A DNA stretch of 64,000 bases. Source: Escherichia coli O127:H6 str. E2348/69. GTDB lineage: Bacteria > Pseudomonadota > Gammaproteobacteria > Enterobacterales > Enterobacteriaceae. The notes beneath the pieces are model-generated. The model worked only from the letters and a program-made list of their open reading frames with translations, had not been told where the DNA came from and ran no database searches. The stretch is taken from assembly GCF_000026545.1 (NCBI RefSeq), contig NC_011601.1. One strand, 5' to 3'. Shown piece after piece: positions 5,308 to 11,778 of the stretch. The number at the start of each line of letters is the position of its first letter. Position 1 is the stretch's first letter. A program made the translations under genes and the position numbers.

Positions 5308-5448
<141 letters not shown>

Positions 5449-5538
5449 TCATAGCCTTTCTCCTTGCCGGATGGCGGGTAAGAGGCTAAGATCTGAATTG
5501 CTAGGTTCATTCGTTGGCCTCGGTTTGTACTGTAGTGG

Positions 5539-5856
<318 letters not shown>

Positions 5857-5863
5857 CTAAGAG

Positions 5864-6940
5864 TCAAGCCGTTATCGGGATGCTGTTGATCTGCCTGTTT
5901 TGATTACGCAGTAATGTATAAACTTCGCGTGAGATATAGCGCTTCAGGCAGCGTATTGCTTCCATTTTTGTATGCCCTTCCGCTACTCGTCTGGCGACAT
6001 ATTCCTTCGTTTTATCGTCAGTTCGCAAACGTCCGATGGCAATGATGTGAAGTGCACTATTTGCAGCACGATCTCCACCCCGGTTAAGTCGATAACGATT
6101 CGTTTTTCCTGAAGATACGGGAACAGGGCTGACACCACACAGTGCCGCAAAACCTGATTCTGATCTTAATCGTTGGGGATTGTCTCCTGCCGTGATCAGC
6201 AACTGCGAAGCGCTTTCGTATCCAATAGCATTACGTTTAATCAGTTCAGGCGCCAGCTCATCGACAATTGCCGCAATCATGACATCCAAATCAGCGATTT
6301 CGTCATGTAACTCGAGATAGCGTCGGGCAAGGGACTTTAATGAAATACGATAAACGTTGGTAACATTGCGGTATTCACTGGCATCAGGCCGCCAGGATCC
6401 CAGAGTCCTGATGAGCTGCATGCGCGTCATATTTCTGAGCTGTTCACGTAATTCATCCGGGGCAGAGATAATATTGGAATGGATAATCTGGAGAGCGACT
6501 CTGCGGGCTGATATTGCTGTTTTTCGGCAAGTTTTTAATACCCGCAGAGACTCAATCATGCCATTGCGCGTTTTGGGTGTGACGGTTCTTATTCCGGAGA
6601 ATGCGGCGTGAGCGGCACATTCAGCATCAATCGTGTCACTTTTACCCCGTTTGCGTCGCTCCATCCGATCTGGCGCAGTCACCTCAAGAACGTCTAACCC
6701 GGCATTCTGTAAATAGCGAAGCAGACCTGATCCATAGGTGCCTGTACACTCAACACCAATTCGCTTTAATGCCCCAAACGAAGTCATCCATGCCAGCATC
6801 TGCCGGTAACCTTGCCGTGTTGTGGAGAAAAACTGGGTCCCCAGAACTTTATTGTTCTGATCTACGACAGCGGCAACGTGCAGATCTTTATGTGTATCCA
6901 CGCCACCCACAACAGCGGTTTCCGTAACTTTACCTGCCAT
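5864..6940 (-). CDS. IS110-family DEDD transposase/recombinase
   Basis: 358-aa ORF with N-terminal RuvC-like GVDTHKD / ECTGTY motifs and C-terminal SGK...NRYRL...GG region typical of IS110 family. Confidence 0.9.
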   Translation of the reverse strand: MAGKVTETAVVGGVDTHKDLHVAAVVDQNNKVLGTQFFSTTRQGYRQMLAWMTSFGALKRIGVECTGTYGSGLLRYLQNAGLDVLEVTAPDRMERRKRGKSDTIDAECAAHAAFSGIRTVTPKTRNGMIESLRVLKTCRKTAISARRVALQIIHSNIISAPDELREQLRNMTRMQLIRTLGSWRPDASEYRNVTNVYRISLKSLARRYLELHDEIADLDVMIAAIVDELAPELIKRNAIGYESASQLLITAGDNPQRLRSESGFAALCGVSPVPVSSGKTNRYRLNRGGDRAANSALHIIAIGRLRTDDKTKEYVARRVAEGHTKMEAIRCLKRYISREVYTLLRNQNRQINSIPITA

Positions 6941-7220
6941 AACAGAGCTCCTGTGAGGAAACAGAGTTGAATCTCCAGACAGATAACCCGGACAGGACAG
7001 TAACGAGACAAACCGTCAGGCCCTTCTTGAGTCACGCGCATCGGTGAGGAGACGCCTCGCATGAAGGCGCTTCCGGCAACCGACAGGTCCAGGGCAGGAC
7101 AAAAGGGTCGATCGCTGTGTGAGTCAGGATGCGGGAAGGTCTTCACTGCATCAGTAATCACACCAGTCTGGTTAAACAGCAAACAGAGTGATGATAAAAA
7201 CTGATACCGGCATTATTACT
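6941..7220 (-). ncRNA. candidate bridge (guide) RNA in the 5' non-coding end of the IS110-family element
   Basis: non-coding 280 nt upstream of recombinase; 7111-7119 identical to left flank 7221-7229; 7087-7097 is reverse complement of right junction 5840-5850; segments near 7020-7027 and 7051-7058 match the element right end 5848-5858. Confidence 0.45.
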
Positions 7221-8080
<860 letters not shown>

Positions 8081-8176
8081 TGGAGCACCTGTGTTGTTCT
8101 GAGGTGAGCATATCACCTCTGTTCAGGTGGCCAAATTCAGTGTGCCACTACATACTGACCCCAGAAAGTTGGACAG

Positions 8177-8712
8177 TTAAACACGAGGCATATAGGTCTG
8201 ATTCCGATATTCAATTGGAGTCAGACCTTTTAATTTCAGGCTAATTCTTCTGCTGTTGTAGTATTCAATATATTCCGTAACAGCATCCTTCAGCTCGCTT
8301 ATATTACTGAACTCATCAAGATAAAAACACTCCGACTTTAAGGTTCCAAAGAAACACTCCACCACAGCATTATCCAGACAATTGCCTTTTCTGGACATGC
8401 TTTGTTTAATACCATGTTCTTTAAGGACTTCTCATACGATACTGCCATCCCTGGTCAGAGTGCAGAACAGGATGCTCGTGAGGATTAAGCTTTTTGAATG
8501 CCTGATCGAGCATATTCCCGACCATGTTCATCACTGGTCTTTCCGAAAGGCTGTAAGAAATAACTTCGTTGTTGAAGAGATCTATTACTGGAGACAAATA
8601 CAGCTTGCGCCCATTGACTGCAAATTCAGTAACATCGGTAACCCACTTCTCGTTTGGCCGCGTAGCCTTGAAATCTCTTTGGAGAACATTGGGGGCGGTT
8701 TGCCCTACCTCT
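8177..8712 (-). pseudogene. IS150 OrfB (InsK) 3' fragment, additionally frameshifted
   Basis: two ORFs (8421..8750 and 8177..8398) in different frames; about 11 nt missing between ...WQYRMR and [15 protein letters not shown]. Confidence 0.75.
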
Positions 8713-8722
8713 CCTCTGTAAG
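8713..8722. repeat. target-site duplication, left copy (CCTCTGTAAG)
   Basis: identical 10-mer directly flanks both ends of the IS50-like element. Confidence 0.8.
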
Positions 8723-10272
8723 CTGTCTCTTGATCAGATCTCCTGATCAAGAGACTTCATCACCAGGTAACCCTCAACCATATCCTGAAGTCTGAACCAG
8801 CCATCCCACATGACTACCCAACCGGGGCGACCGGTGCGTTTGCTGTCATGCCATCGCCCCAGTTTCGCCAGTTTCAGACAGGCCCATTTCAGTGTCGGCA
8901 TCTGTGACGGAAGCGGTTTTCCTTCCAGCTTAACCCACAGCAGTTTCCACTCTGTCGGCGTCAGTATTTTCTCACAGCTGTCATTTTGTGTTTCTTCACT
9001 GATACCGCCCTGCCGCAGGCCCAGCACCCGCACCGCGATAAACGCCTTGATAACCACCATGCGCTCGAGGTTATCCCGGGTCTGCATTCGCAGCGATTCC
9101 ACACATGTACCACCACTTTTCCACGCCTTGTGGTATTCCTCTATCAGCCAGCGTCGCTCGTAATGGCTGACGATACGTCGCGCATCGGCGGCACTCGCCA
9201 CTTTTTCTGACGTCAGCAGATGCCAGCAGGCGCCGTCCTCTGCCTGCTCCCGGCAACAGACATACGTGAGCGGGAGCGCCTGGCCGCTGTTGTCGGGATT
9301 TTTTATGCTGACTTCGCTGTAACTGATGAACATCCGGGCCTGGCGGGCTGCCCGCCCGCCTTTTTGCATCACATTCAGCGTGTGGCTTCCCGCGGTTGCC
9401 AGGACTTCCGGCAGTTCGAAGAGCTTGCCGGGTGCTTCTTCCAGCCGGCGATTCTGTGCTGCACGCACCACGAAGCGCTGCCCGTGGCTGACTTTATAAT
9501 GCAGGTAATGCCAGATATCCGCTTCCCGGTCACAGACAGTGATTACCCGTTTCTGTATCTCCCCCAGCCGTTCGGCCATGCGCTCCGAAGCCTGCTGCCA
9601 GCGGTAACTTTCTTTTTCTTCATAGGGACGTTCTTTTCGCTGGTGCTTAACACCGTAGGTGTCCGTGGCACGACTCCAGCGCTGCTGTTCGATAAGACCG
9701 ACTGGCAGGGCGCTGTCGGGGGCGTACATCAGGACAGAGTGAGCCAGCAGCCCGCGCGTCTTCGGGTTAGTGGTGGTATTCCCCAGGTCATCAGATGCCG
9801 TACTGTGACTGAAGTTAATGGTGGTGGTGTCTTCCAGCGCGAGGAGCAGCGGATGAGCCTCACATGCCCTTACAGTGGCGGTAAATCCGGCTTCGGCAAT
9901 GGCTTGCGGGGACACAGACGGGTTACGTATCAGGCGGTACGCACCTTCAACCTGAGCAGTGGACTGGGATGATTTCACAATAGAAAGACCTGCATGCTGA
10001 GCGAGAGAAGAGGCCAGTGACACAAGGCGTCGTGTACGACGCGGATCACCGAGACGGGCATGTCCAAACTGCTCGTTAGCCCATGAATAACAATCAGAAA
10101 GTACCATAACAGACCCGAAGAAAATGAAATATAAGAGAAGATCAACGGGTGAGGAAAAAGTTCAAAAAATCGCTGCCGGGGAGGAAGGAAACTACCGGAT
10201 GGAAAGAGTCCCCCTAAAGCAGACTGACAGACATCACAAATCCCCGGGTGGGGATTTGTGTATAAGAGACAG
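8723..10272 (-). mobile_element. IS50-like IS4-family insertion sequence (about 1550 bp)
   Basis: 19-bp ends CTGTCTCTTGATCAGATCT (8723-8741) and rc CTGTCTCTTATACACAAAT (10254-10272); single transposase ORF; flanking direct repeat. Confidence 0.8.
8734..10107 (-). CDS. IS4-family (Tn5/IS50-like) DDE transposase
   Basis: 457-aa ORF; conserved [38 protein letters not shown] motifs; stop codon lies inside the terminal repeat. Confidence 0.9.
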
Positions 10273-10282
10273 CCTCTGTAAG
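10273..10282. repeat. target-site duplication, right copy (CCTCTGTAAG)
   Basis: identical to 8713-8722. Confidence 0.8.
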
Positions 10283-10577
10283 AGCGGTATCGCTTGACCT
10301 TAATCGCTGCCTTCAGTGAGAGGATTCCCATCAGGCGCTGAACAGCTTTATGGTTAATCTGTTTCCCTTCTCGATGAAGAGACAGCGTTACCCTACGGTA
10401 TCCGTATCGGCCTCTATTCTCATGATAAATCTCACCAATACGCTTTTTAACGTCCGCATACTTGTCAGGCTTGCTGAGAGCCTTTAGATGGTAATAAAAC
10501 GTACTGCGCGGTATCTCCGCAGCCCTGAGAAGCTCATCAAGAGGATAAAACTGCCTTAGCTCGTTGAGTACTTTCAC
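10283..10577 (-). pseudogene. IS150 OrfB (InsK) 5' fragment
   Basis: GTG-initiated frame MKVLNELRQFYPLDELL...KRYRSYRG then reads into the IS50-like insert. Confidence 0.8.
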
Positions 10578-11095
10578 TTTTTCGTGGGATGAGCTAAGGC
10601 TTTCAGCTTTTTTAGATACACAAGCCGCGTTTCAAGAAATCGAACTTGCCTTTCAAGATCCTCAATGCGTCGGTCTTTTGACAGCTCCAATGCTGATGCC
10701 GCTTTTTCTGGATCAACTGATATTGCAATGTTTCTTTTGGTGCCAATCTTGAGCGCGCGTAAACCAGCTTCTCCGCGCTCTTCATAAACCTTCAGCCACC
10801 TGGCTACAGAACCACTACCAGCAAGCATAAAGTGAGCAGCAGCCTGATTAAGGGACATGTGCTGCTCGATCACAGCTTTCATGACCTTAATACGCAACTC
10901 AGGAGCAGCACTAACACCTTTAGGTTTGGGAATTAAACCTTTTTCTCCATGTTTTTCATAGAGGGCAACCCATGTCCTGACCTGGGTTCGGGGGACACCA
11001 AAACGTGCCGAGATGATCCTGTAACCATCATCAGTAGTGAAGTAGTGATTCACGACTTCAAGGCGCTTTTCAAAAGGGTATTTTGGCTTTGACAT
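10574..11095 (-). CDS. IS150 OrfA (InsJ)
   Basis: 173-aa ORF MSKPKYPFEKRLEVVNHY... Confidence 0.9.
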   Translation of the reverse strand: MSKPKYPFEKRLEVVNHYFTTDDGYRIISARFGVPRTQVRTWVALYEKHGEKGLIPKPKGVSAAPELRIKVMKAVIEQHMSLNQAAAHFMLAGSGSVARWLKVYEERGEAGLRALKIGTKRNIAISVDPEKAASALELSKDRRIEDLERQVRFLETRLVYLKKLKALAHPTKK

Positions 11096-11334
11096 ATCAG
11101 GGGCTATTCCATTTCATCGTCCAACAAAATGGGTGCAGTACAGTTGATAGAAATATCGGTCGGGGCCTTCGTCTTTCTGATTCCCGGTTAGCCTGAAAAC
11201 AGAAAGTCTCAGGCACCCGTGAGCATCCTATGTGGTTTCCTTAGGGTCGAAAATAATCACCTGACGAAATTGCGTGCTGTTTTCCAGAATTTTTCGTCAT
11301 TCGGTTTAGTCAGTTTAATCATTCGTTACTCTCG

Positions 11335-11778
11335 CAAGGCCGTGGATTTGCCGTTGTCGCCAGCGAAGTACGGACACTCGCAAGCCGCAGCGCCCAGACG
11401 GCGAAAGAGATTGAAGGCTTGATCAGTGAATCAGTCAGGTTAATTGACCTGGGATCGGATGAGGTGGCAACGGCAGGGAAAACCATGTGCACTATTGTTG
11501 ATGCCGTCGCGAGTGTCACACATATCATGCAGGAAATCGCCACCGCCTCGGATGAACAAAGTCGAGGCATAACGCAGGTTAGCCAGGCGATTTCTGAAAT
11601 GGATAAGGTGACGCAACAGAATGCTTCTCTGGTAGAAGAGGCCTCAACGGCAGCGGTGTCCCTTGAAGAACAGGCGGCACGATTAACTGAGGCGGTGGAC
11701 GTATTCCGTCTGAACAAACATTCTGTGTCGGCAGAACCTCGCGGAGCTTGTGAACCAGTTAGTTTTGCTACGGTGTGA
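11335..11778 (+). pseudogene. trg: methyl-accepting chemotaxis protein Trg, 3' fragment only
   Basis: frame encodes MCP signalling domain from [12 protein letters not shown]... to C-terminus; no 5' part of the gene, IS cluster lies upstream. Confidence 0.75.

Follow-up and report, generated by a model that had tools for sequence, protein, structure and literature searches.

The trg locus of the enteropathogenic Escherichia coli (EPEC) strain E2348/69 (O127:H6) holds an IS150 copy that has been broken up by other insertion sequences. This raises the question of whether its transposase gene, orfB, has also suffered a small deletion of its own and, if so, what that deletion does and how it came to be there. 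We examined this in a 64,000-nt stretch of the E2348/69 chromosome (the window), in which a first-pass annotation made from the letters alone had proposed an additional orfB deletion of roughly 11 nt. Our analysis indicates that the element is almost certainly a dead IS150 lying in the truncated trg of E2348/69, and that 11 bp were lost from its orfB after this lineage split from that of 2022H047.

The window represents the E2348/69 trg locus, and three independent assemblies of this strain contain a 100% match to a 601-nt probe taken from it. The first 17.7 kb are collinear with NZ_CP059840.2 bar one single-base indel near position 7101, where the window reads CCCTTTTGTCC and NZ_CP059840.2 reads CCCTTTGTGTCC; this site is non-coding, upstream of the ISEc21 transposase, and the indel is either an assembly difference or a real variant. 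IS150 occupies one place in the E2348/69 genome. In the RefSeq annotation it forms part of an IS nest with trg, cut to 444 nt, on one side and a Hok-family toxin gene on the other, and the nest itself is annotated as a 'transposase, frameshifted' remnant, then ISEc13 (IS4 family), an 'IS3 family transposase, frameshifted; incomplete', a second frameshifted IS3-family gene, ISEc21 (IS110 family) and an integrase-core remnant. From trg to hok, the features of the locus are as follows.

11143-11590: trg remnant, the 444-nt 3' fragment adjoining the IS nest.
10273..11142, minus strand: IS150 5' segment (reference 1-870), with the left inverted repeat, intact orfA/insJ, the slippery heptamer and the start of orfB; 98.4% identity to K-12 IS150 by blastn.
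11095..10574, minus strand: orfA/insJ, encoding InsJ of 173 aa, open.
10613..10607, minus strand: slippery heptamer A AAA AAG, intact, read off the sequence.
8723..10272, minus strand: ISEc13 (IS4 family, IS50-like) within IS150 orfB; transposase at 10107..8734.
8153..8722, minus strand: IS150 3' segment (reference 861-1441 minus the 11 deleted nt), with the remaining orfB and most of the right inverted repeat; 581 blastn columns with one 11-nt gap.
5531..8152, minus strand: IS911-like element of the IS3 family, in two parts (8152..7221 and 5847..5531), lying 2 nt inside the IS150 right end.
5848..7220: ISEc21 (IS110 family) within the IS911-like orfB, assigned by RefSeq name and NCBIfam match.
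5526..5527, minus strand: displaced IS150 terminal CA-3' (reference 1442-1443), about 2.6 kb from the rest of the right end.
About 5308-5439: hok-family gene, on the far side of the nest from trg.

The name ISEc13 follows RefSeq ('IS4-like element ISEc13 family transposase') and an NCBIfam IS4 match (E = 2.6e-154), and the IS911-like element was identified from RefSeq names, NCBIfam matches and comparison with the uninterrupted element of 2022H047. NCBIfam labels the IS110 family, to which ISEc21 belongs, 'RNA-guided transposase'.

We used the annotated IS150 of K-12 MG1655 (IS3 family, IS150 group, genes insJ and insK; NC_000913.3 3720633-3722075, 1443 bp) as the reference for alignment. Reference 1-870 aligns with window 11142..10273, and the alignment of reference 861-1441 with window 8722..8153 has one gap. 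When the element was rejoined and aligned globally, this was its sole gap: reference 1156-1166 (ATATCAAAATA), exactly 11 nt, is missing from the window copy and present in K-12. The proposed deletion is thus borne out by the alignment and takes an exact size. Its position and its immediate consequences in orfB are given here, with a slash marking the junction.

Between 8428 and 8427, minus strand: deletion junction, reading ...ATGAGAAG/TCCTTAAAG...
8421..8423, minus strand: premature stop codon produced by the frameshift, from the open reading frame list and translation of the reconstructed orfB.
8177..8398, minus strand: out-of-frame C-terminal orfB remnant, containing the DD(35)E glutamate together with the Lys seven positions further on.

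Across the junction, the minus strand from 8440 to 8415 reads ATCGTATGAGAAG/TCCTTAAAGAACA; the wider read-out is ...CGTATGAGAAG/TCCTTAAAGAAC..., with the junction string GTATGAGAAGTCCTTAAAGAACAT. Neither the global alignment nor the junction read-out reveals microhomology at the breakpoints. The first-pass annotation had placed the deletion at 8399-8420, which instead separates the premature stop (8423..8421) from the ATG that follows it (8398..8396); the true junction, 8427/8428, lies 7 nt outside that interval. It had also put the element at about 1431 bp, some 12 bp short of 1443 bp. The shortfall is real, and the exact figures are 1432 bp of IS150 DNA (870 + 560 + 2) and 11 nt.

In other respects the window copy closely resembles that of K-12. 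It shares the left inverted repeat, an intact orfA, the A AAA AAG heptamer and an otherwise collinear orfB at about 98.5% nucleotide identity, and is flanked by a 3-bp target duplication, AAC. It differs from K-12 in the absence of reference 1156-1166, the presence of ISEc13 at reference 861-870, the separation of the terminal CA, and 19 true substitutions over 1432 bases. Straight alignment over the 1443 reference positions returns 21 substitution differences plus the 11-nt gap, the other two being TG of the IS911-like element set opposite the displaced CA. We therefore rejected a CA-to-TG substitution at the IS150 tip, since this TG is the start of the neighbouring element. Elements are conventionally treated by ISfinder as the same IS at 95% identity or more, and the window copy lies above this value both over reference 1-870 (98.4%) and over reference 861-1441 (97.2% with the gap, 99.1% without it). 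The window element is IS150 by descent and a pseudogene by function.

A DD(35)E-K motif is the signature of IS3-family transposases. In K-12 InsK, HSDQG occupies residues 186-190 and VVECFF residues 222-227, so that D188 and E224 have 35 residues between them. The deletion covers InsK codons 197-201. As its length is not divisible by three, the frame shifts after codon 196 (R196): two foreign residues follow before a stop (...AGA AGT CCT TAA...). The break falls 8 residues past the second Asp of the triad (HSD188QG) and ahead of its Glu (VVE224CFF). As the first-pass annotation had described, the InsK frame stops and resumes in another frame, in open reading frames at 8421..8750 and 8177..8398 on the minus strand. 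The two orfB remnants match the NCBIfam IS3 transposase profile at positions 187-290 (upstream) and 305-369 (downstream), leaving a 14-position gap. D188 and E224 lie in different frames and no single OrfB frame holds the intact triad; thus, neither OrfB nor an OrfAB fusion could hold a complete active site. A frameshifted orfB is in itself already known, as RefSeq labels the remnant 'IS3 family transposase; frameshifted; incomplete'.

Upstream of the lesion, the IS150 layout is retained, with orfB starting in the -1 frame relative to orfA and the A AAA AAG heptamer in place, from which programmed frameshifting would still be predicted.

Two further insertions break the element. ISEc13 is flanked by 10 identical bases, CTTACAGAGG, at 10282..10273 and 8722..8713, and the two IS150 alignments overlap at the corresponding reference 861-870. 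IS50-like elements are expected to generate a 9-bp target duplication, so one base at the ISEc13 flanks is ambiguous. The IS911-like element entered after reference 1441 and duplicated 3 bp, GTA, at 8155..8153 and 5530..5528; its termini are TGTAGTGG...CCACTACA, and its junctions read ...CCACTACA/GTA/CA/AAC/CGAGG and ...TCTATCAAC/TGTACTGC. The inverted repeats of IS150 terminate in 5'-TG...CA-3'. The left end of IS150 (TGTACTGCACCC...) is intact at 11142, and the right repeat runs to ...GGGGTCAGTA at 8153 with the final CA at 5527..5526. All bases of the two ends therefore exist, but those of the right end are non-contiguous. The IS150 target duplication AAC is found beyond both ends, at 11145..11143 and 5525..5523 (a 3-nt match has a chance of 1/64). 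Because the AAC copies match on both sides of IS150, the truncation of trg may predate the IS150 insertion.

This copy is thus broken in three ways, by the ISEc13 insertion, by the 11-nt frameshift and by the IS911-like insertion at its right end. It had been described as inactivated twice, by the IS50-like insertion and the deletion; both of these hold for the transposase gene, and the third break is added when the element as a whole is considered. With orfB broken and the right end non-contiguous, the copy should be able neither to make transposase nor to offer two intact ends. Established IS3-family biochemistry leads us to expect that IS150 activity has been lost and that the deletion represents neutral decay.

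A copy at the same site in 2022H047 (NZ_AP029605.1 2362833-2364273 plus the displaced CA) provides a view of the locus without the deletion. The two copies share about 18 differences from K-12, and both loci contain the truncated trg, IS150, an IS911-like insertion 2 nt from the right end, and hok. In 2022H047, however, the IS150 has the 11 nt, its annotation gives an intact gene with programmed frameshifting, and no ISEc21 interrupts the otherwise identical IS911-like element. Relative to it, the window copy adds three single-nucleotide polymorphisms (SNPs), the 11-nt loss and ISEc13, with no other differences. The flanking sequences of E2348/69 and 2022H047 differ by 0.2-0.7%, which, together with the shared arrangement, indicates that the IS150 insertion predates the split between the lineages. 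Since the 2022H047 copy and about 99.8% of E. coli copies keep the 11 nt, the deletion is a derived lesion. The SNPs private to E2348/69, at 10905, 10882 and 8518, produce InsJ D64A, InsJ V72M and InsK E167G; all three are nonsynonymous, which fits the relaxed constraint of a gene no longer under selection.

Taken together, these comparisons indicate that IS150 inserted before E2348/69 and 2022H047 separated, and that reference 1156-1166 was lost from orfB later, in the E2348/69 lineage. The resulting frameshift brings in a stop two codons on and leaves no product with the full DD(35)E triad. ISEc13 splits the copy, and the IS911-like insertion severs its terminal CA-3'.

We extended the analysis to 5,426 complete E. 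coli genomes, using a 100-nt probe across the junction at a coverage of at least 80%. About 99.8% of the IS150 copies in these genomes keep the 11 nt, so that the window copy differs at this site from nearly all of its relatives as well as from K-12. The probe returned 3,370 records, of which 3,363 have the 11 extra bases (and align at about 90%) and 7 have the deletion. The 7 deletion records are 100% identical to the probe and comprise the three E2348/69 assemblies, 1517k, TKEC21-59, its sibling CP092449, and STS63-2-E. They represent only two contexts among 5,789 places in 2,826 genomes. The deletion occurs in none of 1,411 matching plasmid records and in none of the genomes, one per species, of 100,044 bacterial and archaeal species (GTDB), and in metagenomes it occurs in one contig, from human gut, on the same island as in 1517k. 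The ISEc13/IS150 junction was seen only in the three E2348/69 assemblies, and no intermediate at the trg locus with ISEc13 alone or the deletion alone is present in the E. coli genomes surveyed. A group of matches at 99.1% identity (H10-H13) was considered as further deletion carriers and rejected: subtraction of 777 for IS1 and its duplication from their 1358 leaves 581, 100% identical to K-12.

The second context is an island IS150 found in 1517k, TKEC21-59 (and CP092449), STS63-2-E and the human-gut contig. It has the same 11-nt deletion as the window copy, and the 100-nt junction window is 100% identical. However, it lies at another locus and is a K-12-like allele, distinguished from the window copy by at least 13 diagnostic sites along the element. 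It consists of reference 184-1443 only, lacking 1-183, and has an intact right end and no ISEc13 (L003:5079-6327, L004:5079-6327 and L007:6762-8010). The neighbouring island genes encode a site-specific integrase and an AAA ATPase of about 1,900 aa. No pre-deletion form of the island copy was found, the context being present in only four records, all four with the deletion.

The same lesion thus occurs in two distinguishable IS150 alleles. The E2348/69 lineage may have acquired it by a mutation in place or through recombination with another copy, and two separate deletion events are a further possibility. We consider it probable that the deletion had a single origin and was moved between the alleles, in either direction, by short-patch homologous recombination or gene conversion from a donor that was transient in the cell, for example on an acquired island. 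Identical breakpoints that lack microhomology favour a single origin. The diagnostic SNPs nearest to the deletion are at reference 1063/1065 and 1300, with none between 1066 and 1299, so conversion could have replaced as much as 234 bp without leaving any other trace. RecA-dependent exchange would also find ample homology, the alleles being about 99% identical. Against this, E2348/69 today has no donor copy, a tract of at most 234 bp is at the short end of the usual range, and a recombinant with a longer tract is absent from the E. coli genomes, the plasmids, the 100,044 GTDB species genomes and the metagenomes.

Alternatively, a site-preferred deletion could have struck independently at the trg locus and in the island IS150 of 1517k, TKEC21-59 and STS63-2-E, with the quasi-palindrome AAGATAT-CAAA-ATATCCTT or the AT-rich tract as a possible cause. 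We regard this as unlikely. The same breakpoints are seen despite at least 13 diagnostic SNPs spread over the whole element, and with a single IS150 in E2348/69 no conversion donor is visible. In addition, an IS1 insertion at reference 1160-1169 in other strains marks the region as, at the least, a reactive AT-rich patch. However, slipped mispairing is unable to yield a deletion whose breakpoints lack microhomology, and we rejected slippage as the cause because there are no direct repeats at the breakpoints and the ATAT...ATAT repeat would remove 8 nt rather than 11. Hairpin-driven deletion was likewise rejected: the hairpin GATAT-CAAA-ATATC is weak, with a 5-bp stem and a folding energy of -1.6 kcal/mol, and folds no better than shuffled sequences (z = 0.03). 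A true hotspot should also have given more than two contexts among the places surveyed. Thus, conversion from a single origin is more likely than independent recurrence.

The third explanation, that the 11 nt are the footprint of an imprecise excision of IS1 or of a cut-and-paste IS such as ISEc13, is highly improbable. An IS1 does overlap the deleted segment in PSJ-07, L73, ETEC6 and PK5074, and the many ISEc13 ends in E2348/69 imply high cut-and-paste activity in the past. However, a reconstruction of the IS1-bearing sequence offers no repeat that would join GAAG to TCCTT, the junction retains no remnant of a target duplication or an IS end, and for two alleles to have acquired an identical footprint is less likely still. 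Finally, although an error of sequencing or assembly, or a functional allele within the normal range of IS150, was possible a priori in an AT-rich tract, either can be dismissed as next to impossible: the window is matched at 100% by all three independent assemblies of E2348/69, the junction recurs in four further genomes and a metagenome contig, the frame is broken ahead of the catalytic Glu, and nearly all copies have the 11 nt.

E. coli genomes commonly contain frameshifted and nested remnants of insertion sequences, and most of what is seen here is the ordinary decay of a dead mobile element. Our results correct the breakpoint and the lesion count, to 8427/8428, exactly 11 nt and three lesions. 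They also suggest that the sole IS150 of the prototype EPEC strain, dead three times over as judged from its sequence, would make no contribution to IS150 transposition there. The one point of wider value, in a finding that otherwise matters little, is the deletion shared by two alleles, which could mark gene conversion between IS copies or a mutational hotspot. That reference 1156-1166 is a specific deletion hotspot, acting by an unexplained mechanism and hit independently in the two alleles, is a doubtful proposition. On a weaker reading, the shared lesion would be a natural example of gene conversion over 234 bp or less, spreading an inactivating lesion between IS copies of different E. coli lineages.

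Two observations concern the other elements. A literature search on E2348/69 together with ISEc13 returned nothing; ISEc13 ends occupy 27-30 places in each E2348/69 assembly, which points to a strong expansion of this element in the strain. The IS1 insertion of PSJ-07 lies in the IS150 at the hokA locus (L005:6309-7077), with the same insertion in L73, ETEC6 and PK5074. With this insertion and the deletion both falling within reference 1156-1169, the same AT-rich patch has been struck by two kinds of event.
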